A stretch of 64,000 bases of DNA, taken from assembly GCA_934153675.1 (NCBI GenBank), contig CAKPFG010000002.1, positions 32,692-96,691 of the forward strand. Direction: 5' to 3'. How positions within the stretch are numbered: position 1 is the stretch's first letter; each line of letters opens with the position of its first letter. The notes under the pieces were generated by a model, which worked only from the letters and a program-made list of their open reading frames with translations, made no database searches and was not told the origin of the DNA. The translations under genes were made by a program, and so were the position numbers. Positions 24,886-43,581 of the stretch are shown in pieces. The stretch is from an uncultured Bacilli bacterium. Lineage in GTDB: Bacteria; Bacillota_I; Bacilli_A; RF39; UBA660.

Positions 24886-25093
24886 TATCACTTTTTGATT
24901 TTTCAATATATCACCACACTTTCTAGAATAACCATAAAGCACTTATTATTTTTATGTTATCCTATTATCATTAGTATACCATATAATTTCATTTTTTTTA
25001 CAATTTTTTGATTTTTTCCAGTGAAAAAGAGTAAATTTTCTTTGCAAAGAAATTTGATATAATTACTACATAATAAAAAGGTGGTATGAAGTA

Positions 25094-25438: not shown

Positions 25439-25544
25439 TACTTTTTTGTCATAGTTTCCCCATAAAACAGCATCATATAAATAATTGAATTCTTCAACAC
25501 TATTAACATTCTCTTTTATTGAAATCATTTATACCACCCAAAAT

Positions 25545-26027: not shown

Positions 26028-26392
26028 TTTTTAATCACCTCAAATACTTCAAATATAACTCTTGTGTTTTCATTAAAATTAGGATCTAATTTTTTAAAAT
26101 AATTTGTATGACTTTCTTTCCATTCGTTTAACGATTTATTCTCACCCTCAAATTTTGCTAAATTCCATGTAATATTTTTAAATTCAGTAACAATAACATT
26201 ACTTGTTTTTATAAAGCATACATTGTTATCTTTTGTATCTGTCATTATTGATATATCTCCAACCTCTGAAATATTATCTAGATCATATAATGATGTAGTA
26301 GCTATCTTTTTACCATCTAACACAAGATTAACTAATCTATCTACATCAATTTCAAAAATCCATCTATCAGGTTCATTTAATAGCACTATCAT
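26024..26392 (-). CDS. ASCH-domain protein
   Basis: GKKIATT ... EWK ... FEVFEVI pattern. Confidence 0.5.
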   Translation of the reverse strand: MIVLLNEPDRWIFEIDVDRLVNLVLDGKKIATTSLYDLDNISEVGDISIMTDTKDNNVCFIKTSNVIVTEFKNITWNLAKFEGENKSLNEWKESHTNYFKKLDPNFNENTRVIFEVFEVIKK

Positions 26393-26427
26393 TTTTTCTT
26401 TATTACCTAATGTGTCTGATCATACAT

Positions 26428-26890
26428 ATTCATCCACTATTTCAAAGTCACATTTTTCATAACATTTGACTATACTTTCGTTTCTTTTAAAAGGTCTTAA
26501 TACAATACAGTCGCATAAGCAATTTTCATAAATATAATTATTAACATATTTAACAATTTGTGTTTTAATTCCTCTAGATAAGCATTCCGACTCTCCAATA
26601 AATATATCATATTCATATATACTATCATATTTTATAAATGCTTTGCTTTTCTTATCATCATATTTATATATTTGAACAAATCCTATTTTATTATCATTAT
26701 AATTTATAAAAAATAACTGTTACTGATTTGCTAATAATTTATTCTTATATTTTTTTCTATCTACTCATAGGAAAGTTTTCTTTGTTCAAACCACTTATAA
26801 ATAAATTCTTTACTACACCATTTATACATTAATTCATAATTATCTTTTTTATCAGTGAATTCAATTAAATCTATTTTGCTCATAATCTCA
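26428..26890 (-). pseudogene. Disrupted AAC(6')-like GNAT acetyltransferase (N-terminal 40-aa ORF + out-of-frame C-terminal part)
   Basis: MSKIDLIEFTDKKDNYELMYKWCSKEFIYKWFEQRKLSYE-stop, then ...FIGESECLSRGIKTQIVKYVNNY...NESIVKCYEKCDFEIVDEYV in another frame. Confidence 0.55.
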
Positions 26891-27053
26891 CCAACTTTCA
26901 TACATAATTATACCATGAAACTATAATATATTTTTATTTATGTAACCATACACTAAATCAAAGTGGGCTCCAAAGTGGCTCAGCTTTTTTTTGAACTATT
27001 TTTTGGCAAAAAGAAAAACTCGCTTTTCCCCTTTGTTTATGGGACTTTACGAG

Positions 27054-27116
27054 TTATTTACCACAACATTGCTTATATTTTTTACCACTTCCACATGACT
27101 TTTTAATATATGTCAT
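27054..27116 (-). repeat. Fossil secA 3'-end copy A (20-aa mini-ORF MTYIKKSCGSGKKYKQCCGK)
   Basis: Nucleotide and peptide identity to the secA C-terminal SEC-C tail. Confidence 0.8.
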
Positions 27117-27203
27117 TCTGCTCCACTTTAGAGCATTTTATCCTATAAATTTGCACTTTTTTGCACTTAGCTACACTCTGTTACACCCCGCTTCACTAGC
27201 AGA

Positions 27204-27225
27204 ACGTATCTAAAAACGTATCTAA
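27204..27225. repeat. Tandem motif ACGTATCTAAAAACGTATCTAA (copy A), overlapping stop of upstream gene
   Basis: Direct sequence. Confidence 0.85.
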
Positions 27226-27722
27226 TTTTTAACTGATTTTATTTGAAATAATGTTACTATATTTGCAATAATATTCATAAAATCAAATATTGCTGATGTA
27301 TATGATTTTATTACTATATCATATATAAACCACATAAGCATAGTAAAAACAATTAATAATTTGAATCTTTTGACATTTTTTATATTCATTAACCATATAT
27401 AAGTGACTGTACTGATTAAAGGCAATAATCCAATATACCTTAAATTATTGAATTTTAAAGTTAAAATTATTGCTAAAATTGTTATTACTATTTTTTCTTT
27501 TAGTCCTAGTTTATCTTTATAGCATAATATATTTCTAATCAAACTTAATGCATTTATTATAGCCCCAGTTATTCCACCCAAAATAATATTACTAATTACT
27601 GACATTCCTATTTGTACTGTCTGAAAATATAATATTTTTTTCTTTTGTTTTAATGTGCCAGAGTATACCATTAATATTGAAGCAATGAGCGCAATTATAT
27701 TCCCTATTATTATACTTACCAT
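27222..27722 (-). CDS. YgjV-like polytopic inner membrane protein (paralog 1)
   Basis: 166 aa, 4-5 TM, similar to adjacent paralog. Confidence 0.4.
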   Translation of the reverse strand: MVSIIIGNIIALIASILMVYSGTLKQKKKILYFQTVQIGMSVISNIILGGITGAIINALSLIRNILCYKDKLGLKEKIVITILAIILTLKFNNLRYIGLLPLISTVTYIWLMNIKNVKRFKLLIVFTMLMWFIYDIVIKSYTSAIFDFMNIIANIVTLFQIKSVKN

Positions 27723-27744
27723 TACTACATCCTAATTTTATTAA

Positions 27745-28260
27745 CTATTTTACTTTATTATTTTTCTTTTCATTATATACGGCTATGCCTGTTGAAATTA
27801 TCGAAATAATGTTTGAGATTATTCCTGCAATAGAAACAACAAAAATATTATATGATAACCACAAAAAATAGCAGAGTAAAGCTGTCTGCTTTACAACTTT
27901 TTGATCTCCATTCCAAATAGGTATTAGATATATAATTGCTGCAATTAAAGGAAATAAAGACCATATATTTTTATATGTAAAAATACTAACGATTATATAA
28001 ACTATTATAAAAATATATAAATATATTGATTTATTATACTTTTTATTTCTATCTTTCATTATTATAAAACTATCTCTAAAAATAGCCAAACCTTTTGTTA
28101 TACATCCTGTATATGCACCTAATAATAAATAATGTATTAAATTTAAAATATTAGATATAACCATGTTTCCTAATATTTTTTCTTTTTTACTTTTATGATA
28201 TGCAAAAATTGAAACAAAAAAGGAAGCAAAACCAATGAATTGTGAAATTATATAAACCAT
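27745..28260 (-). CDS. YgjV-like polytopic inner membrane protein (paralog 2)
   Basis: 171 aa, 4-5 TM. Confidence 0.4.
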   Translation of the reverse strand: MVYIISQFIGFASFFVSIFAYHKSKKEKILGNMVISNILNLIHYLLLGAYTGCITKGLAIFRDSFIIMKDRNKKYNKSIYLYIFIIVYIIVSIFTYKNIWSLFPLIAAIIYLIPIWNGDQKVVKQTALLCYFLWLSYNIFVVSIAGIISNIISIISTGIAVYNEKKNNKVK

Positions 28261-28287
28261 TATTATTCTCCTTATTACTTAAATATT

Positions 28288-28590
28288 TTATATTATTTCC
28301 TTATCTATCCATTTTAAATAATTATCATTTATACTTGTTAAATCAAAAATAGCAAATTCAAAACATTCATAGCTATGTTTGCTCTTAATAACTTCATATA
28401 TTTCTTTTAGGCAGTTTTTCTTAGTTTTCATTTGAAGTAAATATTCTTTTGCTTCTTCTCTTTCATTATTCCAATTCCAACTGCTTTCACTTTCAAGAAT
28501 GTGACAACTAGCAGCTAATTTTTTATCTAACAATTCTTTTGCAATACTTTCTTTATCGCAAAACGTTGTTACAATTATATATTTATCCAT
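28288..28590 (-). CDS. cutA: CutA1 divalent-cation tolerance protein
   Basis: IVTTFCDKESIAKELLDKKLAASCHI ... HSYECFEF ... YLKWI matches CutA family. Confidence 0.7.
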   Translation of the reverse strand: MDKYIIVTTFCDKESIAKELLDKKLAASCHILESESSWNWNNEREEAKEYLLQMKTKKNCLKEIYEVIKSKHSYECFEFAIFDLTSINDNYLKWIDKEII

Positions 28591-28593
28591 TTT

Positions 28594-29385
28594 TTACTCC
28601 TCAATAATATAATTTTTAATTACATTTACAACTTCATCATGCACTACCCCATTACTTATTAGAGCTCCTTTTATACTTTGATCATATCTTTGTTCATTTC
28701 CAAATAAATCAGTTACTTTTCCCCCTGCTTCTTCAACAATGACTTTTACAGCAGCAATATCACAATGTTTATGTTCTGTTCCTGTAAAAATTGTTAAGCT
28801 ATAATCTCCAGTTGCTACACAACAACTAGCTCTTGTAATACTTCCAATATCATTCAATCTGGTTTTCTTTCTTAATTCTTCAAATACTTTACAAACATTA
28901 TATTTTGCTTTAGACCACATATCACAATGACAAACTGTTCTAATATCATCTAAAACATAATTATTTACTGATATTTTCTCATTATTTTTATATGCCCCTT
29001 CTCCTTTTATGGCTGTATATAAACTATCTGTAAAAGGATCATAAACAACTCCTACTATAGGTTTTCCATCAATTACTAAAGCAAGTGAAAACACGGCAAC
29101 AGGAATATGTCTCGCATACATTGCTGTCCCATCAACAGGGTCACATACCCATTTATAATTACTTTCTCCAAATTGTTCTTCTTCTCCGTCGACCGCATGG
29201 CTTGGATATTTCTCTTTTACTCTATTAATTAAATAAGAATTAATTTCTGTATCGGCTAAAGTTACAATTGTTTTATCTCCTTTATATTTTTCGCCATTAT
29301 CTTTACTAAAATACTTTAGCATTATTTCACCTGCATATTTTGCAATATCTTTTGCAAAATTTAAATATTCACTATATGTACTCAT
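28594..29385 (-). CDS. Inositol monophosphatase family protein (SuhB-like)
   Basis: WVCDPVDGT metal-binding motif. Confidence 0.8.
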   Translation of the reverse strand: MSTYSEYLNFAKDIAKYAGEIMLKYFSKDNGEKYKGDKTIVTLADTEINSYLINRVKEKYPSHAVDGEEEQFGESNYKWVCDPVDGTAMYARHIPVAVFSLALVIDGKPIVGVVYDPFTDSLYTAIKGEGAYKNNEKISVNNYVLDDIRTVCHCDMWSKAKYNVCKVFEELRKKTRLNDIGSITRASCCVATGDYSLTIFTGTEHKHCDIAAVKVIVEEAGGKVTDLFGNEQRYDQSIKGALISNGVVHDEVVNVIKNYIIEE

Positions 29386-29542
29386 TTTAAACCACCTATT
29401 TTAAATATATTTCAAATTCATTATATCATACTACCAATTTATTTCAACCTTTTAAATTATTTTTACCAATGTCACAGTGGCAGTGGTTCATGTCTTCCGA
29501 AAGTATTGGAAATACTGGAATTTAATTTTCAAAATTCTTTCT

Positions 29543-29559
29543 AGATACGTTTTAGATAC
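29543..29559. repeat. Tandem motif copy B, inverted orientation (agatacgttttagatac)
   Basis: Reverse complement of gtatctaaaacgtatct. Confidence 0.8.
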
Positions 29560-29642
29560 TTTCTTGCAACATATTTAGTAACATATCTAAATAATATTGC
29601 CTAATTTTATATATAAAAAAGCCTCTATTTCAAGGCTTTTAA

Positions 29643-29750
29643 CTACTTTCCGCAACATTGTTTATATTTCTTCCCGCTTCCACAAGTTCCGTTCAATCTA
29701 GTATTTATGTTATTTATAGTATTTATGTTACTTATGGTACTATATATATT
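29643..29750 (-). repeat. Fossil secA 3'-end copy B (...NINTINNINTRLNGTCGSGKKYKQCCGK, no Met start)
   Basis: Peptide/nucleotide match to secA tail including upstream Asn/Thr-rich codons. Confidence 0.8.
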
Positions 29751-29902
29751 CTATAAAATGAGGTAAATTACCTCTTTTCCCTATTTTTGAACTTTAAATA
29801 GCTTTTTAAACTACTCCTTCCTTTCAAACTTCATTATAATTATACCATATTTTTAACTTTTTAACAATGAGCTTAATGGTTATTTTAAAAAAAAGGAGAT
29901 AA

Positions 29903-30133
29903 TTAAAATATATCATATTTAATTATATCGTTAATTATCTCTGAATGTGTCATTTCTTCAAAAGCATTTGTTGCTTTTATTTTAGAATTTTCGGTACTAG
30001 AAATATAATAATTTTCAGTTGTTTCTATATTACCATGCCCTAGTAAATCTGCAACATCTCTAATCTCTACACCATTCTTTAAAATTTTCGTAGCATAACT
30101 CCCTCGTAGATCATAAAATCTACAATTTTCGAT
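29903..30133 (-). pseudogene. Tyrosine integrase C-terminal fragment (after in-frame TGA)
   Basis: IENCRFYDLRGSYATKILKNGVEIRDVADLLGHGNIETTENYY = box II / catalytic Tyr region; same frame as 30134-30502 across a TGA. Confidence 0.75.
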
Positions 30134-30502
30134 TCATAATTCCTCATGAATAATTTTATATGGATATTTAGTTAAATTTGTACCCACATATTTTCCATCA
30201 TCTTTTGTAAAAACTAACTTTATTCTTTCTTTATCTTCTTCAGTATTTTCTACTATTCTTTGTTCAATGACTTTACCATATTCATTCAAAACATCTTCTA
30301 AATGATAATATTTATATTTTATTCCATACATTTTTTCAAAATTTTCCTGTTGTTTTTTATAGTTTGTTAATGCAATAAATAAAGTATTACTGATATATAT
30401 TTTTCTTTTTCCGTTAAATGTTTTATGTTCGCCTATATACCATCTTCCTTTTTCATCTATTAAACCATTATACATCTTATTTAAATTCTCTTCATTTATC
30501 AT
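30134..30502 (-). pseudogene. Tyrosine integrase middle fragment (catalytic domain, 5'-truncated)
   Basis: GEHKTFNGKRKIYISNTLF...LVFTKDDGKYVGTNLTKY matches integrase Lys-hairpin / box region; continues in-frame into 29903-30133 after TGA. Confidence 0.65.
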
Positions 30503-31503
30503 TTTCTAATTCCTCCTTGCTTTCTTTTAAGTAAAAGTTCTTTACTTTCAGACATGCCTTCCTTATCAAATTCATCAGATAATAGAACAGGATACATTGT
30601 TAAAATATCTTTTGTTCCAATCATAGTAACAACGCATAAATCACTTGTTATATCATCACCTTTAAAACCAATTGGTGTATCTAATCTAAATCTATACATA
30701 TCTGAAACTTCAAAATGATTTGAGTTCATGCCCTCAATTTTTTCTCTTGCATCTATTAATAATTTTTTTAAATCAATATATTTGAAAAAGCATCCATTTG
30801 TAGATTTTTCTCTTTGATTCATGTGTTTACTTATATGTCTCAAAAGCAAGTCTTCACTATCATCAAACAAACGATATATCATATAATCTTTTATTGGATC
30901 AAAATGATTGTCTGATTGTCTCAATTTTCCCAGATTCCGAAGTAAATACATTTCTAGTATTTGATAATGCTGTAGCAATTTGGGTGTTAAACGCTCAGAA
31001 TTTATTGCTTTCAAATATTTATAAGCATCTCTATAATTTTCTTTCAAGATATTTAAGCATACTAATCCAATTGTTGATTGAATATAAAACTTTCTATTTA
31101 ATTGTAAAGTTTCTAACATCTTTCTAGCAACTTCATTATCTCCTGTTTGAATATATAACTTTGCTATAGCAAGTAATGATTTATTTTGCATATCAGGATC
31201 AATCATACATTGACTATAATATGTTTTACTTTTCTCAAAATTATTTTCTATATTTTCTAACAATCCATATACTTGTTTAAATTCTATAGCATCACTTTGA
31301 TTATTCCTTAAAAGATTTCTTACCTTTGCATATTTTCCTTCTCTTAAATCTATTTGAATTAATTTTGATAAGGATAAATCGCCAAATTCACCATTATATT
31401 TGTAAGCCTTTTCAAAATAATAACGAGCATTTATATAATCATTATTATTCCAAAATTCTATTCCTTTAAAGTAAGCATCTTTTTCACTCAGTATATTCTC
31501 CAT
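30499..31503 (-). CDS. TPR-repeat protein (N-terminal TPR, C-terminal domain of unknown function)
   Basis: Start at MENILSEK; TPR-like helices; operon with sigma factor. Confidence 0.55.
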   Translation of the reverse strand: MENILSEKDAYFKGIEFWNNNDYINARYYFEKAYKYNGEFGDLSLSKLIQIDLREGKYAKVRNLLRNNQSDAIEFKQVYGLLENIENNFEKSKTYYSQCMIDPDMQNKSLLAIAKLYIQTGDNEVARKMLETLQLNRKFYIQSTIGLVCLNILKENYRDAYKYLKAINSERLTPKLLQHYQILEMYLLRNLGKLRQSDNHFDPIKDYMIYRLFDDSEDLLLRHISKHMNQREKSTNGCFFKYIDLKKLLIDAREKIEGMNSNHFEVSDMYRFRLDTPIGFKGDDITSDLCVVTMIGTKDILTMYPVLLSDEFDKEGMSESKELLLKRKQGGIRK

Positions 31504-31667
31504 TATTACCCCCCTTTTTTTGGTAAAAAAGAGTATTATAGATGGCAAATTTGATGCAAAAAAATCACAAAGTGATTTACTTTGTGATTTTTATTGTTTA
31601 ATAGTTAGTATTAATTATATAATTAAATTTAGACCAAAATCATTGTTTTTTATAAATATGTTATTAC

Positions 31668-33209
31668 TTAATCTTCCTTCTTTTTTAAAACTAAAGAAGA
31701 TCCTGTTGCTACTTCAACAGCCTTATCAATAAATTGATTTATATTTTCTTTATAAACTAATAATACCTTTTTCGTAGTTTCTATAACTTCACTTGTTTCT
31801 ATTCCTAAAAAACCTGCTACTGATTCTGTTGTGAAATACTTTCCATCTACATATCCTAATTTTAAACAAATTATTACTGCTTCTTTTGGTGTTAATGATT
31901 TTAACATTTCGCCAAAACTTGGTGTTCTCATTAATTCTAAAATTTTCAAACAATCATCTTTTTCTATTTCCGAAGTTGTTTGAGGTGAAATTGTTTTTGA
32001 ATTTTCAACTTTTTGTGAAATCAATTCTGGTTGAGTTACTTCTTCTGCTTTTGTTTTTTCTAGTGAAAGAATACTAGATCGGTTATTTGTATCTGAAACA
32101 TTTTGTGTTCTTCTTTTATATTTTTTTCTTTTTCCTTCAGGATTAGATAATAATCTTTTCATCTTGGGAATTAAACTACCATAAAATTTGTTTGTTTCTT
32201 CTTTTGCCCATGTTGATGAAGTAACTGGATTATCTAAATCCTCACCATATCTTAATTTTACTAAAGATTTTTCTTCTTCTGTTAATTTGCTTAACATTGC
32301 ATCTATTTCTTCCCTTGTATAACCTTTTAAATATTCATATATTGTTTGTAATTTTTTCCCTCTCATTTTTTCAAATTTCCTTTCTTCTACATTTATACTA
32401 GATTTCTCTATAGCATCATTATTTTGATTAACGAACTCTATCTTTTCTTGAAGTTGAATGTCTATTGCTGGAGTAATGCTAGATGGTTGTAATGGTAATT
32501 TATTAGATTTTAGATTTTTAGTTTTTTTACCAGGTCTTCCTACTGTTTCTATTACACCATTGTCTTGTAATTGTATTCCAATTCTTTTTACAATTTTTAT
32601 TATCAACTTTGACACATACGACTGAGTAATATTAAGTTTATCTGCAATTTCTTTTTGTGTATATGAATGGTCATTAATAAACCCAAAATAAAGCAAAATT
32701 ATTTCTCTATCTCTATCTGGTAAATTATAAACAATTTTTCTGACTTCATTATAAGTAATTTGATCTTCATAATCTGAAACAAAATCTGATATATCATCTT
32801 CTAAAATATCCTCAATCTTTTTTTCATTTCCCTCTTTGTCTGTTCCTATTGGAGTATTAATACTTTGATCAAAAGCAGATTTTTTACCTTTTCTTAAAAA
32901 CATTAATATTTCATTATCAATACACCTTGTTGCATAAGTAGCAAATTCAAAATTTTTATCAGTATCAAATGTATCTACACTTTTTACTAAGCCCACTACT
33001 CCTGTTGAAACTAATTCTTTTTTATCATAACGTGTATTAGCAAACTTTTTACTTACTTGATTCAATACTAATCTAATATTATGAATTATCACTTGTTCTC
33101 TAGCTTTTAAATCTCCCTGCTTATATTGTTCTAAATAAGAATATAATTCTTTCTTTGACAATGGCTTAGGAAGTTTATTTGACTCTATGAATAATTCTTC
33201 ATAATTCAT
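31668..33209 (-). CDS. SigE/SigK-like (group 3) sigma-70 family factor with about 290-aa C-terminal extension containing two extra sigma-4-like HTH repeats
   Basis: LPKPLSKKE...AREQVIIHNIRLV...ATYATRCIDNEILMFLR (region 2), YTQKEIADKLNITQSYVSKLI (region 4), then repeats LSKLTEEEKSLVKLRYGEDL and LTPKEAVIICLKLGYVDGKYFTTESVAGFLGIETSEV. Confidence 0.7.
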   Translation of the reverse strand: MNYEELFIESNKLPKPLSKKELYSYLEQYKQGDLKAREQVIIHNIRLVLNQVSKKFANTRYDKKELVSTGVVGLVKSVDTFDTDKNFEFATYATRCIDNEILMFLRKGKKSAFDQSINTPIGTDKEGNEKKIEDILEDDISDFVSDYEDQITYNEVRKIVYNLPDRDREIILLYFGFINDHSYTQKEIADKLNITQSYVSKLIIKIVKRIGIQLQDNGVIETVGRPGKKTKNLKSNKLPLQPSSITPAIDIQLQEKIEFVNQNNDAIEKSSINVEERKFEKMRGKKLQTIYEYLKGYTREEIDAMLSKLTEEEKSLVKLRYGEDLDNPVTSSTWAKEETNKFYGSLIPKMKRLLSNPEGKRKKYKRRTQNVSDTNNRSSILSLEKTKAEEVTQPELISQKVENSKTISPQTTSEIEKDDCLKILELMRTPSFGEMLKSLTPKEAVIICLKLGYVDGKYFTTESVAGFLGIETSEVIETTKKVLLVYKENINQFIDKAVEVATGSSLVLKKKED

Positions 33210-33404
33210 ATTTTTCCCCCTCCAAGTTTTCTACAAGTACATAACTTTGTGATTTTTTCTCACAAAAAGTGTTTTTATAATAACATCTTTTTTCAAAACA
33301 AGCAAGATTTCAACTTTTTTTTGTCAAAATTATTAAATTAATATATTTTTATCAGACTTTAATATACCTCTCTTTAAGTTATGTACTTTGAGATTTAATT
33401 GCTA

Positions 33405-33437
33405 AAAAAACAGCTTATAAAATTTTAAGCTGTTTTA
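33405..33437. terminator. Bidirectional hairpin terminator
   Basis: aacagcttataaaattttaagctgtt. Confidence 0.55.
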
Positions 33438-33439
33438 AT

Positions 33440-33720
33440 TATATTTTTCTTTTGACTAATTGATATATATCATTGTGAATTTCATCAAGAGTACGCATCC
33501 TATTATTTTCAGCACATTCTATTTTGTTCCATCCTAAATATTCAGAATATAACATATTACATTCTTTTGTACTTTCTCCACTAATAAATTCTTCATATAC
33601 TCTTTGTCCTGCTATATATGCATCTTTTTTTGTCTTAAAACCAGATTTTGATATTTGTTTTCTTTTACCATTAACCTTTCCTGCTTCAAATCTGTATTCA
33701 TACAGATTATTTCTTTTTCT
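33440..33720 (-). pseudogene. Tyrosine integrase N-terminal fragment (arm-binding + start of core-binding domain), no Met start
   Basis: RKRNNLYEYRFEAGKVNGKRKQISKSGFKTKKDAYIAGQRVYEEF... Confidence 0.7.
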
Positions 33721-33789
33721 AATACTAATAATAATTCCTCATCTCCTTTACAAAAAAATGTTAGCATACACATACTAACATTTTTTATT

Positions 33790-34782
33790 TTAAATACTAA
33801 GTCCTACTTTTTCTTTTACTATTTTCATTTTTTTAGAAGCATATACTCTAGCTTTATTAGCACCATTTGTTAATATTTCTTTTAAATGTTTTTCATCATT
33901 TCTATATTGATAAAATTTGTCTTGAATACCTTTAATAAATTTACAAACACTATCAGCAACTTCAATTTTAAAATCTTTATAATTATAATTCTTATATTTT
34001 TCATTAGATTCCTCTATAGTCATATTATTAACCACACATACTAATGATATTAAATTAGATATTCCCGGTTTACTATCCTCATCATAATAAACTTTTCCCT
34101 CACTATCTGTACACGCAGACATTATTTTCTTTCTTGTTATTTCTATATCATCTAACATAAATATTGTCCCTTTATCATCCTTTGGAGCAGATTTACTCAT
34201 TTTAACGCTTGGATCTTGTAAGTTCATTATTTTAGCACCTATTTTAGGTATTTGATATTCTGGTAATTTGAAAGTATTACCATAAATATTATTAAATCTT
34301 TCTCCAAAATCTCTAGTTTTTTCAATGTGTTGTCTTTGATCTGCACCTACTGGTACTATTTCAGCATCATATAATAATATATCTGCTGCCATTAAAGTTG
34401 GATAAATAAATAATCCCATATCTTTTTCACTTTTTCCTAATTGTTGTTTTTTAGATTTAAATTGTGTCATTCTAGATAATTCTCCAACACTACATTGAAA
34501 TGACATTAAAAATCCTAAATTACAATGTTCTAATACATTACTTTGCATAAATAATGCCGTATTATTAATATCGATTCCACAAGCCATATACATTGCTGTT
34601 ATATCTAATATATTATTTCTTATTTCTTTTGGATCAATATAAGTTGTCAATCCATGAATATCTGCAATAAATATTAATGAATTATATTTATATTGTTGTT
34701 CTACAAATCCTTTTATTCCTCCAATATAGTTTGCTAAAGTTATACTTCCTGTAGGTCTTACACCTGTAATCATTGTTTTCAT
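33790..34782 (-). CDS. trpS: Tryptophanyl-tRNA synthetase
   Basis: Class I aaRS HIGH-like (GVRPTGSITLANYIG) and KMSKS motifs; 330 aa. Confidence 0.9.
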   Translation of the reverse strand: MKTMITGVRPTGSITLANYIGGIKGFVEQQYKYNSLIFIADIHGLTTYIDPKEIRNNILDITAMYMACGIDINNTALFMQSNVLEHCNLGFLMSFQCSVGELSRMTQFKSKKQQLGKSEKDMGLFIYPTLMAADILLYDAEIVPVGADQRQHIEKTRDFGERFNNIYGNTFKLPEYQIPKIGAKIMNLQDPSVKMSKSAPKDDKGTIFMLDDIEITRKKIMSACTDSEGKVYYDEDSKPGISNLISLVCVVNNMTIEESNEKYKNYNYKDFKIEVADSVCKFIKGIQDKFYQYRNDEKHLKEILTNGANKARVYASKKMKIVKEKVGLSI

Positions 34783-34784
34783 AT

Positions 34785-35080
34785 TTTTTTCCTTCTTTCT
34801 TATATTTTTATATTTTAAATCAATGATTAATATAACTTATACCATCGTTTCAAATACTTTTCCATACAACCATCTCCTTCTTATAAATAAAAAAAGATTC
34901 CAGTCTAAAAATTAAGACAAGAATCTTGTACCACCTAATAATAGTTTCATTTCATATACCATCATATATGTTCACTTGATAACGGGTAGAAACTCCCGAT
35001 TTTTCATACTTTAATTAATTTCTGAAAAACTCTCTTTGGTCCATTCAATATTCATCCATTGCAACTTTCCATCAACCAGT
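34785..35080 (-). ncRNA. T-box riboswitch leader of trpS (Trp specifier UGG candidate, T-box AUUAGGUGGUAC, terminator)
   Basis: Minus strand reads ...attaggtggtacaagattcttgtcttaatttttagactggaatcttttt (T-box + terminator hairpin); upstream aauggaccaaagagag stem I-like AGAGAG. Confidence 0.6.
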
Positions 35081-35317
35081 TGCTTTCTATAAATTTCATA
35101 AATATCTACTTCTCCAAATCACTGATTTAAAATATGGTTAGATTATAGCACTAAACTTGCATTTTGTCAAAAATCAAAGTAATAAAAAAGGATGTCCACA
35201 TTTGAAATGTTGTCTACATCCTTGTTTTACTTATGTTTTATTAGTATTACGTGGACAAGTTATCAAACTCGAACCAACTTAATATTCTTTGAATTTCTTG
35301 TTTTCCCTTATTTTATC

Positions 35318-35371
35318 TTACTTTCCGCAGCATTGTTTGTATTTTTTTCCCGAACCACAAGGAATAAGTTA
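35318..35371 (-). repeat. Fossil secA 3'-end copy C (LIPCGSGKKYKQCCGK, no start codon)
   Basis: Match to secA tail. Confidence 0.8.
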
Positions 35372-35464
35372 CAATTTTTGAATAATTTTTTCCTTTTAAA
35401 GTGGTGTTTTTTATTTTAAAATTATAATTTTTTGTTGAATAATTGTAAGATTTTATTCAAGAGT

Positions 35465-35487
35465 GTATCTAAAAACGTATCTAAAAT
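35465..35487. repeat. Tandem motif copy C (tgtatctaaaaacgtatctaaaa)
   Basis: Direct sequence. Confidence 0.85.
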
Positions 35488-35504
35488 AATAGATTTATAT
35501 CTTG

Positions 35505-36497
35505 TTAATATAAGTCTTTTATTGGCATTACCATCTCTTTACCATCTTTTAATAACGCAATACTCGAATTCTTTAATTCTTCTTTATTAATCAGTTGATT
35601 AGAAATGTAATCAAAGAACATATCATTTATTGAATTTAAAAAAGTATTTACTTCATTTAATAATCTTATACCTGAAGAACTATAATCAAACCATATATCA
35701 CTGTCAATTATGTTTACTACTGGATATTTTTTATTATATCCAGATGCAGATTTATTTGGAAAAATCAGGTCAAACGGATTATCCCTTGTGACAATCGCTT
35801 CTTCTATCTTCTGCTTTACATAATTATCTTTATATATATCTATTAAAGTACTATTTATTATAATGTTGCCATTTTTATCAATACCTACCATATTACATTT
35901 AGAACTAAACGAATAATAACAAGTACACTCTTCTTTTCCAGATATATATCTATTTTCAGTATAATGAACAACTCTATTTCTTAACATATACACTTCCCAC
36001 CAAAGGCCAAATTCATTTCTGTTTGGATAAAAATCAAAAGACTTATCTTTATTAAAATAATGTTGTAATTGAATTCTTTGTTCAGATTCAAAAAGAGAAT
36101 ATAATTGTGTTACTAAGCTATCAAAATAGAATGAAAATTTATCATTTAATGGTGGTGAAAAAATATTTCTTTCATCGGTCTTTATAGTACCAACTGCAAG
36201 ATTTATATTATTTAAAAATTGAAAAATAAAATAAATTAATTCCTTTTCCTTATACAAAAATTCTTCAATAATACGAAGTTCATCATACCTTACTATGTGT
36301 TCTTCATTTTTATACTTTTCAATACTTAAAGTCGTTAATGCTAATAAAATGGATTGTAATTTAAATTCAATTTTATTATAATTTTCTCTAATGTTATTAA
36401 TTTCATTATTAAACTCTGTAATTGTCATGTTAATTTTTTCACACTCCTCCAAAGATGGCGCAAATATCCAAATATTACTATAGCAGTTTTTTATCAT
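35505..36497 (-). CDS. Hypothetical protein (330 aa), operon with APH-family kinase
   Basis: ORF, overlaps upstream gene end. Confidence 0.5.
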   Translation of the reverse strand: MIKNCYSNIWIFAPSLEECEKINMTITEFNNEINNIRENYNKIEFKLQSILLALTTLSIEKYKNEEHIVRYDELRIIEEFLYKEKELIYFIFQFLNNINLAVGTIKTDERNIFSPPLNDKFSFYFDSLVTQLYSLFESEQRIQLQHYFNKDKSFDFYPNRNEFGLWWEVYMLRNRVVHYTENRYISGKEECTCYYSFSSKCNMVGIDKNGNIIINSTLIDIYKDNYVKQKIEEAIVTRDNPFDLIFPNKSASGYNKKYPVVNIIDSDIWFDYSSSGIRLLNEVNTFLNSINDMFFDYISNQLINKEELKNSSIALLKDGKEMVMPIKDLY

Positions 36498-37401
36498 TGT
36501 TTAATGATACTACTTTAGCTGCTGATAGCACATCATTCTTTAATTCATCTGATTCAGGATGTTTAACTAATTGGGCTAGAAAATAAACCATGTCATATAT
36601 TCCTAATCTTTCATATAAATTTGGAGTATTAATCAATTCCGGATAAAAATGACTAACATATGACATTATATTCAAATACTGACTAACATCTGTATAATCT
36701 TCTGTTTCTTCACTAGCAAATTTCCATGGTTTCCTTATCATTCTATAAAATATATCCAATTCAAAATCTCTTGGTGCATACATTGATCTTTCAAAATCGA
36801 TTATTTTTATTTTTCCATTGTCTACAAATATATTATCAAAGTGAAGATCATTATGTACTAATACAAATTCATCAGATTCAAGATACTTATCAAAATCAGA
36901 ATATGCTTGTTCTAATAATTTTTGTTCCTCCTCATTGAAAATATTTAATTTTTTTTCTTTTGCATATAAGGGATTAAATTCTTTTTTCATATATTCAGAC
37001 CAGTTATATCTCTCACCTCTAATGCTATGCATTTTTTTCATGGCATCACATAATTGTCTTATTATATCCTCTCTTTGTTCTTCTGTATAAGTATGCCAAA
37101 CATTATATAACGAAACTCCATTTACTTTTTCAAGAATTTCATAAAAATAAGGAACATCTACCTTATCTGTATTTGAATAGTATAACTTAGGTATTAAACT
37201 ATTATCTTTATTGGAATTGTAAAATGCAATTTCTTTTTTAAATTCTTCTTCATTATCAACATCAGTGCATACTTTGACTATGTAAGAATCATTTACCCTG
37301 TATAAAGTATTTGTAAATCCAACATTTATTTTTTCAACTCTTGGATTTGTTCCAAATAATAATTCATTGTTTTTTATTATTAAATTTATAATTTTATCCA
37401 T
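36478..37401 (-). CDS. Phosphotransferase-family (APH/choline-kinase-like) kinase
   Basis: LVHNDLHFDNIFV ... IIDFERS catalytic (Brenner) and metal-binding motifs; RBS aaggaagtga before MDKIIN. Confidence 0.7.
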   Translation of the reverse strand: MDKIINLIIKNNELLFGTNPRVEKINVGFTNTLYRVNDSYIVKVCTDVDNEEEFKKEIAFYNSNKDNSLIPKLYYSNTDKVDVPYFYEILEKVNGVSLYNVWHTYTEEQREDIIRQLCDAMKKMHSIRGERYNWSEYMKKEFNPLYAKEKKLNIFNEEEQKLLEQAYSDFDKYLESDEFVLVHNDLHFDNIFVDNGKIKIIDFERSMYAPRDFELDIFYRMIRKPWKFASEETEDYTDVSQYLNIMSYVSHFYPELINTPNLYERLGIYDMVYFLAQLVKHPESDELKNDVLSAAKVVSLNNDKKLL

Positions 37402-37465
37402 AATTATCACTTCCTTTTTAATTATATCATACACACCTCATTTTAAGGCTAATCGGGGCAAAAAA

Positions 37466-37486
37466 ACGTATCTAAAACGTATCTAA
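37466..37486. repeat. Tandem motif copy D (acgtatctaaaacgtatctaa), just upstream of -35 of APH operon promoter
   Basis: Direct sequence. Confidence 0.85.
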
Positions 37487-37568
37487 GCGCCTTTTTTGAG
37501 GTAAAATTGCCTAAAAATTGTAAGTAGCAAAAAGCTCGCAAGCCCTTTATTTATAAGGCTTTACGAGC

Positions 37569-37616
37569 TTATTTTCCGCAACACTGTTTATACTTGCGTC
37601 CACTGCCACATGTTCA
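37569..37616 (-). repeat. Fossil secA 3'-end copy D (TCGSGRKYKQCCGK, preceded by stop)
   Basis: Match to secA tail. Confidence 0.8.
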
Positions 37617-37829
37617 TCCTTTTCTAGTATTATTTGTACTATTTTTACTATGTGTTTTCTTCTCAATGAACACAAAATGCACACAATGTATCCATTCGTT
37701 CTCAAGATTAATTAATTTGAGTATATAAATAATATATACTGCTGACTAAATTATACTATAAAAAATAGTTAATTGAATAATTTAATCAATTAACTATTTT
37801 TTATAGTATAATATTAGTGGTGAGCTATT

Positions 37830-38531
37830 ATGTTAAACTTTTCAAAGAAATATATTGTTGTTATCATATTGAGCATAATTATTTTTCTTACATTATATTT
37901 TTGTTGGATATTTTTGTTAAAAAAAGAATATAACTACAAAAATGGAGAAATTGGAATTTATCAATATAATGATAAAATAAAAGTATCTGAGTTGGATTCT
38001 TTCTTTTTGGATTCTTTAATTGTAAATAATAATTATTTATCTTTTTATGATGATGCAATTATTCAAATAAATAAAAATGATTTTCGTAAGCGAGTTATTG
38101 GAGAAGTATCAGTATTTGCTAAATATGATACTATAGAAAATTTAGTTCAATTTTTAAAGGAAAATGGAGTAGAAATTCAATCTAATCTAATATTAGAAAA
38201 TCGAAGGATAATTATATATAGTAATGAGAAAACAGTGTGTATTTTATTTTTTGAATCTGAAAATAAGGTTAGATTAAATTTTAGAACAGAATTACCTTAT
38301 GAAATATCTAATATGTACACTAGTGATGATGAATTTGAAAACTATTATTTAAAAATAAATGAAAAAACTCACTCATCAATAAAAGAACAATTAAAATATA
38401 ATTTTATAAAGATAGCCATTGTAATAGTTTGCTTTAATTTGATTTGTTTGATATTTCTTACATTAAAAAAATTAATAATAATAAAGTGTAAAAAAAGCTC
38501 AGTTTCAAAACTAAATTCCACTTCTACTTAA
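37830..38531 (+). CDS. Hypothetical membrane protein (N- and C-terminal TM helices)
   Basis: 233-aa ORF, plus strand. Confidence 0.5.
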   Translation: MLNFSKKYIVVIILSIIIFLTLYFCWIFLLKKEYNYKNGEIGIYQYNDKIKVSELDSFFLDSLIVNNNYLSFYDDAIIQINKNDFRKRVIGEVSVFAKYDTIENLVQFLKENGVEIQSNLILENRRIIIYSNEKTVCILFFESENKVRLNFRTELPYEISNMYTSDDEFENYYLKINEKTHSSIKEQLKYNFIKIAIVIVCFNLICLIFLTLKKLIIIKCKKSSVSKLNSTST

Positions 38532-38668
38532 ATTAGGGTGGAATTTAGTTTTACAGCACAGCAGTTATTTAAAAAATTTCACTTTGTCCGTTGACTGTCC
38601 TAAAAAAATGTCCTAACATGGTATTATAGAGAAATTGTAGAGAGAAATAAATAGACATAATTTCGTGT

Positions 38669-38941
38669 CTATTTTTTTTGTTTATAAAGAAAGGGGATGA
38701 GAGCTAATTTTAAAATATTTTTAAGTATTACCAATTTATGACATGTATTAAGAAAAAATCTTTTACCTGTATTCATATATTCATTAAATGATTTCATCCC
38801 AGCAACATAAGCATCCTGTTTTGTCTTGAAACCTGATTTGTTAATAAATTTTCTAACTCCCCTTTGTGGAGCTATTTCAAATCTATATTGATATAAATTC
38901 CCTCCTTTTGTTACATTCACTTTTCCCATAACTTCCTCCAC
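38669..38941 (-). pseudogene. Tyrosine integrase N-terminal arm-binding domain fragment (truncated after about 63 aa), adjacent to secA 3' end
   Basis: GNLYQYRFEIAPQRGVRKFINKSGFKTKQDAYVAGMKSFNEYMNTG then unrelated tail. Confidence 0.7.
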
Positions 38942-39163
38942 TAAATTTCTTTAGAGAACGAAAAAATCAGCACGAATGCTGATTATTGTGAATTTGTGTT
39001 CATTGAAAAATTCCTTGTTTTATAAGGTTTAAATCAATTGTGTGCATTAATTTTTTATTTTACGCACACAAATTGCACACAAGTGTGCGTTTTGAGCTGT
39101 TTTTTGTCTATCTTTTTGACTTTTTTTACTGCTGTATTACTGCACAACCCCTTATAAATCAAC

Positions 39164-41653
39164 TTATTTACCACAACATTGTTTATATTTTTTCCCTGAG
39201 CCGCAAGGGCAAAGTTCATTACGTCCTATTTTATTTACCCTTTTTGGAGTATTTTTCTTAACAGTATTTTTATCCTCATTTGTATTAATTTTATCAGATA
39301 CTTGTTTTCTCTCTATGTTTTGTCTTACTTCAGCTTTTAATAAATATGTTGTTATCTGGGCATCTATTTTAATAAGTAATTTTTCAAATAACTGATATCC
39401 TTCATTTTTATATTCTCTTAGAGGATCATTTTGAGCGTAACCTCTTAAATATATACCTTCTCTTAAATGAGACATAGTATTAATATGTTCCATCCAGTAT
39501 GTATCAATAACCCTTAGTGATATTGCTTTTTCAAACTCATCTTTAATCTCTTCTGGTACTTTATTTAATTTTTCCTCATACTCTAATTTTAATTTATTAT
39601 AAATGTAGTCAGACATATCATCAATATTCATGTTAAATACTTCATCAATAGATATTTTATCTTTTAATACATCATTTATTGCTTCTAACATTTCTGATAC
39701 ATCATTTCTATTTACATTTTCCATACTGATATGTGCATCTATAGAATCGTCAATATAATTATGAATAGAATTTAATATTTCATCATGAATGGAATTATTA
39801 TCTAAAATGCTATTTCTTTTTTTATAAATAATTGTTCGTTGTTCATTCAAAACATTATCATATTCCAATAATGTTTTTCTAGTATCAAAGTTATTACCCT
39901 CAACTCTCTTTTGGGCAGATTCTAATGAATTTGATAACATTTTATTTCTAATTGACATATCATCATTAAAACCTATTCTTTGTAACATAACTTTGGCTCT
40001 ATCGGTACCAAATCTTACCATTAAGTCATCTTCAAATGATACACAAAATTGACTAAAGCCTGGATCTCCTTGACGCCCTGAACGTCCTCTTAACTGATTA
40101 TCAATACGCCTTGATTCATGTCTTTCAGTACCTATAACACACAATCCACCCAATGCTCTTGTTTCTTCTGTCAACTTAATATCAGTTCCACGACCGGCCA
40201 TATTTGTAGCAATTGTTACAGCACCTTTTTGTCCTGCATTTGCAATTATTTCTGCCTCACGGGCATTATTTTTAGCATTCAATACCTCATGGGGAATATG
40301 TTCACGTTTTAATTTGTCACTTAAAAGTTCACTTGTTTCTACTGCTACAGTACCTACTAAAATTGGTTGACCCTTAGAATATCTTTCTTTAATCTCATTA
40401 ATAATGGCTTTATATTTACCTTCTTTCGTTGCAAATAATAAATCTCCATAGTCTTTTCTAATTATTGGTTTATTTGTTGGTATTGTAATAACATACATAT
40501 TATATATTTCTCTAAATTCTTCTTCTTCTGTTTTAGCAGTACCTGTCATTCCCGATAATTTTTTATACATTCTAAACAAATTTTGAAAAGTAATAGTTGC
40601 TAAGGTTTTAGTTTCTTCATTAATAGTAACACCTTCCTTAGCTTCAATAGCTTGGTGTAATCCATCTGAAAAACTGCGCCCTTGCATCAATCTACCAGTA
40701 AATTGATCTACTATAACAATTTTATCATCACTTACGACATAATCTACATCCTTTTTCATTCCAAAATTAGCTTTTAATGCTTGATTGATAAAATGAACTA
40801 ATGTAGTATTTTCAATATCATATAAGTTTTCTAATTTAAAATGCTTTTCAGCTTTTTTTATACCCTCATCATCTAATGATACAGCCTTCGTTTTTTCATC
40901 ATATATATAACCATTATTTTCTTTTAATGACTTAGCAAATTTATCTGCCTGTATATATAAATTAGCAGATTTCATAGCGCCACCCGAAATAATTAATGGA
41001 GTTCTAGCCTCATCTATCAATACTGAATCTACTTCATCTATAATAGCAAAATTAAGTGGTCTTTGAACTCTATCATCCTTTTTGATTACCATATTATCTC
41101 TAAGATAATCAAAACCTATTTCATTATTGGTTGAATATAAAATATCACAATTATAAGCCTCTCTTTTTTCAGCAGAACTTAAATTTCTATAATTTACACC
41201 AACTGTAAGACCTAAATATTTATATATTTCTCCCATCCATTCTGCATCACGACCAGCTAAGTATTCATTAACGGTAATAATGTGAACACCATTACCAGTT
41301 AAAGCATTCAAATAAGCAGGCAAAGTTGATGTTAATGTCTTTCCCTCTCCAGTTTTCATTTCTGCAATATTACCATAATGAATTGCAAGTCCACCAACCA
41401 ACTGAACAAAGAATGGTTTTTCTTTTAAAACTCTATATGCAGCTTCTCTAACTGTTGCAAATGCTTCAATCTTAATATCTTCTAATGTTTCACCATTTTT
41501 TAATCTTTCCTTAAATTCAGCTGTTTTATTTTTTAGTTGCGAATCAGTTAAATTGGAATATTCTTCATCTAATAATTCAACTTTTTCAGCAATCTTTTTA
41601 AATTTTTCTAGTTCTTTATATTCATGATCAAATATACGTTTTAAAAATTTCAT
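39164..41653 (-). CDS. secA: Preprotein translocase subunit SecA (with C-terminal SEC-C zinc-binding tail)
   Basis: 829 aa; DEAD-like motor, C-terminal CPCGSGKKYKQCCGK. Confidence 0.97.
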   Translation of the reverse strand: MKFLKRIFDHEYKELEKFKKIAEKVELLDEEYSNLTDSQLKNKTAEFKERLKNGETLEDIKIEAFATVREAAYRVLKEKPFFVQLVGGLAIHYGNIAEMKTGEGKTLTSTLPAYLNALTGNGVHIITVNEYLAGRDAEWMGEIYKYLGLTVGVNYRNLSSAEKREAYNCDILYSTNNEIGFDYLRDNMVIKKDDRVQRPLNFAIIDEVDSVLIDEARTPLIISGGAMKSANLYIQADKFAKSLKENNGYIYDEKTKAVSLDDEGIKKAEKHFKLENLYDIENTTLVHFINQALKANFGMKKDVDYVVSDDKIVIVDQFTGRLMQGRSFSDGLHQAIEAKEGVTINEETKTLATITFQNLFRMYKKLSGMTGTAKTEEEEFREIYNMYVITIPTNKPIIRKDYGDLLFATKEGKYKAIINEIKERYSKGQPILVGTVAVETSELLSDKLKREHIPHEVLNAKNNAREAEIIANAGQKGAVTIATNMAGRGTDIKLTEETRALGGLCVIGTERHESRRIDNQLRGRSGRQGDPGFSQFCVSFEDDLMVRFGTDRAKVMLQRIGFNDDMSIRNKMLSNSLESAQKRVEGNNFDTRKTLLEYDNVLNEQRTIIYKKRNSILDNNSIHDEILNSIHNYIDDSIDAHISMENVNRNDVSEMLEAINDVLKDKISIDEVFNMNIDDMSDYIYNKLKLEYEEKLNKVPEEIKDEFEKAISLRVIDTYWMEHINTMSHLREGIYLRGYAQNDPLREYKNEGYQLFEKLLIKIDAQITTYLLKAEVRQNIERKQVSDKINTNEDKNTVKKNTPKRVNKIGRNELCPCGSGKKYKQCCGK

Positions 41654-41736: not shown

Positions 41737-42264
41737 CTATTTTGTTTCTAATAATCCATAATTTCCATCTTTTCTTTTATATATAACATTAATACTTCCA
41801 TCTTCAGTTTTATAAACAAAGAAATCATGATCTAATAATTCCATTTGTAGTAAAGCTTCCTCTTCATTCATTGGTTTCATATCAATTGTTTTTCTTTTAA
41901 CAATATTTAAATCATTTTCATTTAATTCTTCTTCTGGAATATTAAAATCCTTTATTGACTCTTTAGAAATTTTCTTGCGAATTTTAGTTTTATTCTTTCT
42001 TATTTGTCTTTCAATTTTATCAGTTACTAAATCAATTGAAGCATATAAATCTTTATTTTCTTCCTCACCTCTTAATATTAATCCATGAGTATTTATTGTA
42101 ACTTCAACGCTCTGCAATTTCCCATTTATTTTCAATAATACATTAGCAGAAATATTATCTGGATTTGAAAAATATTTGTTAAGTCTTCCTAACTTTTCTT
42201 CAATATAAGCCTTAATGGCATCAGTTACTTCTAACTTTTTTCCTCTAATATTAAATTGCATATT
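41737..42264 (-). CDS. hpf: Ribosome hibernation promoting factor (long form)
   Basis: MQFNIRGKKLEVTDAIKAYIEEKL...; start taken at internal Met. Confidence 0.85.
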   Translation of the reverse strand, partial: NMQFNIRGKKLEVTDAIKAYIEEKLGRLNKYFSNPDNISANVLLKINGKLQSVEVTINTHGLILRGEEENKDLYASIDLVTDKIERQIRKNKTKIRKKISKESIKDFNIPEEELNENDLNIVKRKTIDMKPMNEEEALLQMELLDHDFFVYKTEDGSINVIYKRKDGNYGLLETK

Positions 42265-42407
42265 ATAACCATCCTCTCTACTATAATTATAGCATTCTAA
42301 ATTATTTAGTTCAAGTCTTTTAACAAACAGAATTACTTTTTTCAATTTATTATCACAAAAAAAATGACCTTTAAGTCATTTCAAAAGATAATGGCACCCT
42401 TACTTAA

Positions 42408-43532: not shown

Positions 43533-43581
43533 TATTTAATATTATTAAATTTTCGAGTATATAGAAGGAGGAGTAGTAATT

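Follow-up and report, generated by a model that had tools for sequence, protein, structure and literature searches.

The 3' end of secA as a probable integrase attachment site, and the array of displaced gene ends behind it in uncultured gut Bacilli

Results

Copies of the secA 3' end

In the genome of an uncultured Bacilli bacterium (GenBank assembly GCA_934153675.1, contig CAKPFG010000002.1), the secA gene is followed by four displaced copies of its own 3' end, and the origin of this array is the subject of this work. We analyzed a 64-kb stretch of the contig, referred to as the window, whose G+C content is 26.8%. The secA gene (39164-41653, minus strand) lies downstream of hpf (41737-42345) and encodes a protein of 829 aa with Pfam SecA_DEAD, SecA_PP_bind, SecA_SW and C-terminal SEC-C domains. 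A six-frame scan of the window found the peptide CGSGKKYKQCCGK, followed directly by a stop codon, five times, on the minus strand in every case. We define the core as the 42 nucleotides formed by these 13 codons and the stop. One core is the working end of secA, or attL core (39164-39205, motif 39167-39205). The others are fossils, named D (37569-37610, motif 37572-37610; CGSGRKYKQCCGK-stop, with one K-to-R change), C (35318-35359, motif 35321-35359), B (29643-29684, motif 29646-29684, with an element-derived open stretch upstream to 29750) and A (27054-27095, motif 27057-27095). The sequence of fossil A serves as the working secA end at a locus in another genome (L065; loci are cited by such numbers).

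When 112 such ends were combined into a nucleotide profile, its search of the 64 kb yielded these five cores with E-values from 1e-14 to 9e-12 and a sixth-ranked match of only E = 2.9, and a search with nhmmer --max detected no further degenerate fossils in the window. A 30-mer singled out in the initial annotation of the window matches it twice, against 0.00 matches expected. Open frames upstream of the fossils extend for merely 1 to 34 codons; fossil A has an ATG (a 20-aa open reading frame, ORF), and B, C and D have no start codon. The scan and the profile confirm the positions and common strand of the four fossils given in that annotation, as well as its observation that copy A alone retains a start codon.

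Between any two of the five copies, 7 to 12 of the 42 positions differ (17-29%), and all differences are between synonymous codons, except for the single Lys-to-Arg codon in D. This pattern is expected if each copy was once the working secA end of some host. Terminator-like hairpins with U runs are located directly 3' of fossils A (~27010-27050), B (29617-29640) and D (~37529-37568), with energies of -13.1, -11.8 and -20.4 kcal/mol and z-scores of -2.6, -2.2 and -3.6, respectively. Fossil C and the present secA end have no hairpin directly after them and are followed by integrase-arm sequence. Searches for tRNAs, tmRNAs and Rfam RNAs as alternative integration targets found none in the region at gathering thresholds. 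A tRNA-like fragment is present downstream of fossil C at 35230-35290 (AAGTTGGTTCGAGTTTGATAACTT with a T-arm-like GGTTCGAGT), in which ARAGORN reports no tRNA.

Units of the array

The 42-nt cores bound every one of the four units of the array, all of which are assigned to the minus strand. The unit next to secA, element 1 (37611-39163), is non-autonomous. It contains an integrase N-terminal remnant that matches Arm-DNA-bind_4 (38669-38941) and a membrane protein gene on the plus strand (37830-38531), and its two ends have arm repeats of the TGCACACAA type (38994-39082 and 37667-37686). Cassette D-to-C (35360-37568) has no integrase and consists of an APH-family kinase gene (36478-37434) and a hypothetical protein gene (35505-36497), with TAGATACGT arm repeats at both ends (37466-37485 and 35465-35483). 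Element 3 (29685-35317) starts with an arm of TGTCCAC/TGTGGACA-type repeats (~35190-35260), then a promoter-like site of consensus type (35142-35170), a T-box leader (34966-35131; 81 bits, E = 5e-18, which is below the Rfam gathering score of 93) and a trpS paralogue (33790-34782). These are followed by an integrase N-terminal, arm-binding remnant (33534-33747), inserted sigma-70 (31668-33209) and TPR (30499-31548) genes, and an integrase C-terminal remnant (29903-30502). Cassette B-to-A (27096-29642), also without an integrase, encodes an IMPase (28594-29385), a chimeric CutA (28288-28590) and two YgjV proteins (27745-28260 and 27222-27722), and has TAGATACGT repeats at 29542-29550 and 27204-27224. 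Pfam searches agree with the gene content initially listed for the four intervals.

Integrase genes in the window exist only as remnants, and the two initially noted, beside copy B (29903-30502, including 30134-30502) and beside the genuine secA end (38669-38941), are both real. The segment at 30134-30502 is homologous to integrase catalytic domains, and a longer conspecific allele matches PF00589; in an alignment, neither the first R box nor the HxxR-Y region is present in the window segment. A block containing the sigma-70 and TPR genes (30448-33388) sits between two parts of one integrase gene and recurs as an intact unit in L062 (88% identical). It is therefore a secondary insertion into the element 3 integrase gene, and its sequence looks like that of a separate small mobile module. 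What had been described as a cassette of integrase, sigma, TPR and trpS does hold all of these genes, of which sigma and TPR arrived later. A 71-nt junction piece of the block (30448-30518) also recurs in L056.

The trpS gene of the window shares only ~33% identity with the trpS gene that relatives usually have 4-8 kb downstream of secA. The same array of a conspecific strain (L081) includes a tyrS with a T-box, and class-I LysRS genes occur in other arrays. These aminoacyl-tRNA synthetase paralogues may be inhibitor-resistance copies or replacements of native genes. The window cutA is chimeric, with a joint at 28538-28550, and L081 and L039 break at the same point. In L082, two cutA copies are ~0.5 kb apart with TAGATACGT-type repeats between them; the window allele looks like the product of a deletion between two such copies.

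The four-copy array stands as initially outlined, and the inserted tract continues past copy A to about 17035. After copy A is a block with ASCH (26024-26392) and GNAT (25545-26027) genes (25449-27053, minus strand), which ends at an insertion sequence (IS) remnant (25094-25438), such that the boundary at 25449 is an IS-associated break. The DNA at 17035-25448 is also variable, lacks SEC-C core boundaries and is absent from relatives with an empty site (described below). It encodes a Cu/heavy-metal P-type ATPase with an HMA domain, an ALK/LTK glycine-rich-domain protein (PF12810), an S24/S26-like peptidase with many membrane spans and two unknown proteins of ~200 aa, and includes a DDE_Tnp_1_assoc IS remnant. 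Next is a thioredoxin-like gene (16204-17034, minus strand), a conserved neighbour of secA that is 22 kb away from it in the window. A search with nhmmer --max for SEC-C core remnants between copy A and this gene, and at the 25449 boundary, found none.

Conspecific strains and the position of the crossover

Ten contigs (in the range L081-L090) encode exactly the SecA protein of the window and have flanks that are 98.6-99.9% identical to it. Element 1 is cleanly missing in four of them (L081, L082, L084 and L087). In these, the alignments on either side of the element share the core as an overlap of 28-45 nt (43 nt in L081), and the empty alleles differ from the occupied allele of the window precisely at the att core. 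Element 1 is present in five contigs, including L085, L086 and L088, as well as L090, which holds its start up to the contig end. Next to secA, L083 has different cassettes (GNAT; GH10; a 542-aa protein), which come with fossils of their own, and its alignment to the window resumes at trpS; in both L083 and L089, C-type sequence directly follows secA. In a correction to the initial proposal, in which each new integration displaced the previous junction, strain variation is not strictly proximal-first.

Across conspecific strains, the first 2,448 nt of secA have 4-9 differences from the window, and the last 42 nt have up to 9, all synonymous and including a TCA<->AGT serine switch. The empty allele of L084 reads ...AAA CAA TGC TGC GGA AAA TAA GCTCG..., the attL of the window reads ...AAA CAA TGT TGT GGT AAA TAA GTTGA... 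and fossil D of the window reads ...AAA CAG TGT TGC GGA AAA TAA GCTCG.... The left half of the L084 allele equals attL and its right half equals D, which corresponds to a reciprocal exchange around CAR-TGY-TGY. These half-site agreements place the exchange between base 3 of the Gln codon and base 3 of the second Cys codon, and we infer that strand exchange occurs in the ~7-nt stretch CA(A/G)-TG(T/C)-TG(T/C). A length of ~7 nt suits the overlap region of tyrosine recombinases. By this mapping, the part of the working secA end from the two Cys codons to the stop is derived from element 1. In strains without element 1, the part of fossil D from the second Cys codon onward, together with its terminator, completes the working secA end.

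Two other variable features were observed in these strains. An IS3-family element (HTH_Tnp_1 and rve) is located within element 1, after the integrase remnant, in L085 (13077-14296), L086 and L088, and is not in the window. An agr-like locus (AgrB, LytTR regulator and histidine kinase; 42927-45713 in the window) aligns throughout in L082, L084 and L086, and has a ~0.5-kb segment (44483-45002) swapped for unalignable sequence in L081, L083 and L085. At the sequence level this variation resembles agr specificity-group polymorphism.

Empty sites and integrases in related genomes

We retrieved 80 secA loci from species-representative genomes using the C-terminal half of SecA. All are from metagenome-assembled genomes (MAGs) labelled Bacilli, Tenericutes or Erysipelotrichaceae, and the best SecA match is 81% identical. 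Five loci (L048, L009, L079, L059 and L016) have an empty site, in which the thioredoxin-like gene starts 33-180 bp after secA; relatives lacking the tract were a proposed check of the initial model. Downstream of secA, 27 of the 80 loci have one or two extra SEC-C fossils, without exception on the same strand as the gene. At L071, the conserved neighbour begins (+1552) shortly after the end of the fossil (+1435), with the same spacing as at an empty site.

Integrase frames, intact or decayed, follow secA in 18 of the 80 loci and start 0.2-1.6 kb downstream (217-258 bp after secA in 11 loci, 1.0-1.6 kb in 7). They are on the secA strand in all 18 loci and on the opposite strand in none. The initial annotation had suggested a search for intact integrase-bearing elements at the secA end of relatives, and six loci have intact integrases of 423-439 aa. 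In five of these (L008, L051, L034, L004 and L023) the gene is 220-260 bp after secA on the same strand, and in L043 it comes after two fossils. The three integrases that were scanned (L008, L004 and L043) have matches to SAM-like (PF14659) and catalytic (PF00589) domains, and those of L008 and L043 also match the arm-binding family PF14657 (Arm-DNA-bind_4). In an alignment, the catalytic R...K...HxxR...H...Y set is kept in L008, L004, L043, L023 and L109, as YTG(L/M)R, CKT, HDFR, LGH and Y. Neighbours of these integrases in relatives are an HTH_36 protein and a MazF-like toxin, the latter identified by sequence inspection, which is the content of small integrative elements. L004 has neighbours more like those of an integrative and conjugative element (ICE), judged by inspection as ParA-like and ParB-like proteins and a large surface protein.

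An integrase gene, intact or split, lies between cores in L050, L053, L052, L025, L054 and L006. The split lineage (L052 12198-13420; also L025, with two copies, L006, L042 and L054) has a ~170-aa arm/core-binding ORF and a ~205-aa catalytic ORF with the same break across several species. These could reflect a single inactivating lesion that the element carried from species to species, or the gene may truly be split or frameshifted. Among 78 species representatives, 17 have contigs that end at most 500 bp after the secA stop, which fits a site that is heterogeneous within populations. In L029, two secA-type ends lie 8.6 kb apart (2488-11200), with long open frames of 829 and 410 codons, and this may be a partial secA duplication or a misassembly.

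Sequences that follow secA are shared between species in ways that include the gene end. L008 and L051 contain the same 7-kb element, 96.5% identical, next to host secA genes that are 78% identical. Their identity begins ~45-60 nt before the secA stop, with the last differences just upstream of the CPCGSG codons and identical sequence from there through the stop. A cassette in L039 matches 27055-28550 of the window (both YgjV genes and a portion of CutA) with 95% identity, compared with 70% for the SecA proteins of the two genomes. In L039 this cassette is placed between secA and a fossil, and the similarity stops at the core. Similarly, the DNA immediately downstream of secA in L065 matches 25449-27097 (copy A, ASCH and GNAT) with 96% identity. 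Boundaries of inter-species BLAST alignments run through the conserved core either way (L065 versus L039), so we mapped the crossover from conspecific alleles only.

Arm repeats, integrase-less cassettes and a prophage partner

Each integrase lineage has its own short repeat beside the core, and there are at least eight arm-repeat types at this site. These include TTGTGTGCA / TGCACACAA (L008, L060 and element 1 of the window), TTGTCTACA (L023), TGTCCACA (L004 and L066), TGAGGACA (L050 and L080), TTGTGCACA (L055) and TTGTTGACA / TGTGGACA (the L052 group and downstream of fossil C of the window). The repeats are probably arm-type binding sites, and the number of repeat types would then indicate the number of integrase lineages that use secA. 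Across the whole window, TGCACACAA is no more frequent than expected by chance (11 copies versus 12.9 expected); all that stands out is that it clusters at both ends of element 1.

For TAGATACGT, 0.21 copies are expected in the window and six are present, all of them at the ends of cassettes D-to-C and B-to-A. In these units, the proximal arm has two repeats at 11-nt spacing, ~85 nt after the stop, and often an inverted copy after them; the distal arm has two at 12-nt spacing, ~110 nt before the next core. L002, L039, L054 and L083 show this layout as well, none of them with an integrase in the unit. In a refinement of the initial account, some of the four window units are more than relics of autonomous elements: cassettes D-to-C and B-to-A have complete arms on both sides and belong to a widespread integrase-less family.

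The TAGATACGT repeat-pair pattern was used to scan viral and metagenome contigs. Of 21 loci from viral contigs, 3 have the repeats beside a SEC-C core and/or an integrase like that of L109, and in metagenome contigs a SEC-C core is near the repeats in 55 of 120 loci. L109, L101, L188 and L218 have TAGATACGT repeats between the secA end and a convergent 373-aa integrase gene. L108 has them beside an integrase of this type too, on a contig that starts after the core. The integrase is intact in L109, and the copies in L101, L188, L218 and L108 are 60-100% identical. On inspection, the L109 integrase is followed by a CI/Cro-like pair, SSB and replication genes, as in a prophage lysogeny module. 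The proximal ~130 nt of cassette D-to-C aligns with the prophage junction of L218 and is also homologous to that of L109. The distal end of the L109 prophage was not seen, as the viral contigs stop at the secA junction. We found no intermediate deletion series leading from an autonomous element to a TAGATACGT cassette. No close relative of the L109 integrase was found in cultured phages (the best is 31% identical), and SEC-C peptide matches in the phage collection are to host secA, YecA-like genes and one genuine 111-aa ORF of a large phage, with no attP among them.

Over all loci, 146 have at least one core and 60 have two to five, and strands are never mixed. Intervals between neighbouring cores (92 in total) range from 0.27 to 8.6 kb, with a median of 1.9 kb. 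In 77 of the 92 there is no integrase match, and the same is true of all 34 intervals with at least two TAGATACGT copies. Cargo ORFs of at least 90 aa are co-oriented with secA in 182 of 187 cases and form 127 clusters at 60% identity. Their Pfam matches include GNAT acetyltransferases (9 and 7 members), class-I Trp/Tyr-tRNA synthetases (3), class-I LysRS, parts of type I and MmeI restriction-modification systems, Fic, kinases and Peptidase_S51, with only 4 members matching Phage_integrase. The motif and stop are retained in 116 of 130 fossils, and the other 14 are decayed (frameshifted or with the stop lost). The open length upstream of the fossils is 1-90 codons, with a median of 18, and the N-terminus is not conserved.

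Discussion

Origin of the array

We consider it highly probable that the 3' end of secA is a tyrosine-integrase attachment site and that the array arose by repeated site-specific integration of the lambda type and decay, in a process of tandem accretion. The attachment site would consist of the SEC-C zinc-finger codons, the stop and ~30 nt downstream of secA, and the integrases would be those of temperate phages and small integrative and conjugative elements in uncultured gut Bacilli. If the attP of each element holds its own version of the secA end codons, then integration rebuilds an intact secA. Each integration would push the previous end downstream to become a non-coding fossil, and repeated integration with loss of integrase genes would lead to a co-oriented four-unit array behind secA. 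Gain and loss of integrase-less cassettes with both att arms probably contributed. Integrases adjacent to secA are the likely catalysts of recombination, and integrase-less cassettes may move by means of an integrase supplied in trans. Serial integration of elements that carry a secA 3' end had been proposed initially, and is supported by the empty sites, the adjacent integrases and the polymorphism between strains.

Several points weigh against this interpretation. No excised circle or free attP was found, and none of the contigs among the loci examined is circular. The crossover mapping is based on few mosaic alleles, and some breakpoints are off-core, such as the point where L083 rejoins the window (35152) and the CutA joint (28538-28550). 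The strain polymorphisms could partly derive from homologous recombination, with secA and shared cassettes as flanks. Over the 10 kb between copy A and the conserved neighbour, a profile search recognizes no att remnant. The comparison sequences are metagenome assemblies throughout, and the evidence is drawn from sequences only. Since the metagenome loci were chosen by the TAGATACGT pattern, the cassette counts are biased toward that family, and flanks of at most 10 kb leave large elements out of the interval statistics.

A further proposal, which we make tentatively, is that the units with TAGATACGT arms form a family of minimal cargo cassettes, 1-3 kb long and without an integrase, in which a proximal arm, one to four genes, a distal arm and a secA end follow one another, and that they exploit a secA-targeting temperate-phage integrase and are shuffled in trans into an integron-like array. 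Cassette mobility is favoured by arms that are intact on both sides, occurrence in many species, near-identity between species and breakpoints within the core, and is weakened by the lack of circles, the off-core breakpoints and the possibility of homologous exchange. Alternatively, the integrase-less units could be dead remnants of full elements that decayed in situ, with polymorphism generated by homologous recombination. Integrase remnants still present in two of the four window units would fit this explanation, as would the IS3 element and the sigma/TPR insertion, which indicate ongoing decay, the breakpoints outside cores and the 14 decayed fossils among 130. However, paired repeats near both ends persist in most of the 34 TAGATACGT-armed intervals, none of which has an integrase. 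Moreover, a small cassette is 95% identical between hosts whose SecA proteins are 70% identical, with similarity that stops at the core, and element 1 is present or absent with in-core breakpoints despite having no functional integrase. The copies that bound element 1 differ at 12 of 42 positions, and should thus be a poor substrate for RecA-type deletion. We regard in situ decay as a somewhat unlikely explanation of these units.

Local duplication of the secA end by slippage or unequal crossing-over, without mobile elements, would produce direct repeats on a single strand, as observed. However, the copies differ at 17-29% of positions, almost wholly synonymously, and each is followed by different DNA that is homologous to secA-downstream regions of other species. 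Together with the integrases, the arm repeats and the sharing of cassettes between species, this makes local duplication very improbable. The SEC-C segments might also be functional small genes that encode metal-binding peptides or YecA-like proteins, since copy A has an ATG with a 20-aa ORF and free-standing SEC-C proteins exist, for example the 111-aa phage ORF in L234. Nonetheless, B, C and D lack start codons, and the 130 fossils have 1-90 open codons with no conserved N-terminus, 14 of them being frameshifted or stop-less. We looked in relatives for conserved small genes and for an invariant array and saw neither, the array being variable among them, and we give this idea equally little credence. 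Finally, frequent breaks of MAG contigs just after secA might suggest an assembly artefact from a repeated 42-mer, but the same 9-kb arrangement is found at 99% identity in independent samples and assemblers (L081, L082 and L084) and the cores differ at 7-12 positions and so are not collapsible repeats, which makes this the least credible explanation.

Implications and comparison with known systems

Tandem accretion at secA implies that the end of this gene is a major site of gene flux in poorly known uncultured gut bacteria. The cargo includes GNAT acetyltransferases, an APH-type kinase, restriction-modification parts and T-box-regulated tRNA-synthetase paralogues. Arrays at this position may also explain the frequent breaks of MAG contigs after secA in the clade. 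A 42-nt SEC-C core outside a long ORF could be a simple marker for mobile cargo in metagenomes, and the synonymous mosaic in the last 14 codons of a near-identical essential gene would be a clear trace, at the population level, of recurrent site-specific recombination. Since one core is shared by several integrase lineages whose arm repeats differ, these would form a natural set for the study of how arm and core specificity evolve, and are a possible source of orthogonal integrases. If the TAGATACGT cassettes are indeed mobilized in trans, many species of gut Bacilli have an integron-like array of diverse cassettes behind an essential gene.

As initially supposed, secA does not appear to be a described integration hotspot: we found no report of it as an attachment site in open-access full texts, although absence there is not proof. 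Restoration of a target gene by the incoming element has precedents. The attP of prophage e14, which integrates at icd in E. coli, carries a near-copy of the last codons of its target, such that the gene stays intact, and with prophages of this type the displaced target end persists as a pseudo-end. Unlike the secA array, e14 is a single element at another gene, with no cassette array.

The tycheposons of Prochlorococcus are reportedly tyrosine-recombinase elements that occur, along with integrase-less cargo units, in tandem at a few conserved sites. They are said to leave partial target copies as repeats, to create variable genomic islands and to use tRNA and tmRNA genes as targets. As far as these accounts go, tandem units and partial target repeats are shared with the secA array, whereas the targets, recombinase families and hosts differ.

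A resemblance to integrons is also apparent. Units of the secA arrays are small, co-oriented and mostly without a recombinase, each ends in a recombination site, and their cargo is very diverse (127 clusters for 187 ORFs). Unlike in integrons, there is no resident intI, attI or Pc platform, and the upstream gene is secA itself. The site is a coding gene end with lambda-type direct arm repeats, rather than a folded single-stranded attC; the hairpins in the array are terminator-like and downstream of the stop. Several secA cassettes have promoter-like sites and terminators of their own, which is another difference.

Perhaps the closest parallels are in streptococci, in which ICEs, integrative and mobilizable elements (IMEs) and cis-mobilizable elements (CIMEs) accrete in tandem at the 3' ends of protein genes, for which a three-step model has been given (Guedon et al. 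2017, PMC5704250). For example, ICESt1 and ICESt3 integrate at fda, according to the account in PMC5704250 and the studies that it cites (Pavlovic 2004, Bellanger 2011). A CIME is an integrated unit that has no integration or transfer genes and retains attL and attR (PMC5704250), and cassettes D-to-C and B-to-A, with cores and TAGATACGT repeats at both ends and no integrase, are CIME-like in this respect. In common with the streptococcal arrays, the secA system would have a tyrosine integrase that acts at the 3' end of a housekeeping gene, elements that restore the gene end, decay to integrase-less units that keep their att sites, and newcomers that enter at the att site of the gene end. It differs in its target, in its uncultured and very AT-rich gut Bacilli hosts, in having up to five cores with a median unit of 1.9 kb and at least eight arm-repeat types on one site, and in having a prophage, not a conjugative element, as at least one of its partners; compared with the ICE and CIME arrays, it is known from sequence alone. 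The mechanism, CIME-like tandem accretion, is already known. The new details are the secA target, the number of arm-repeat types that share the site, and the abundance of small armed cassettes.

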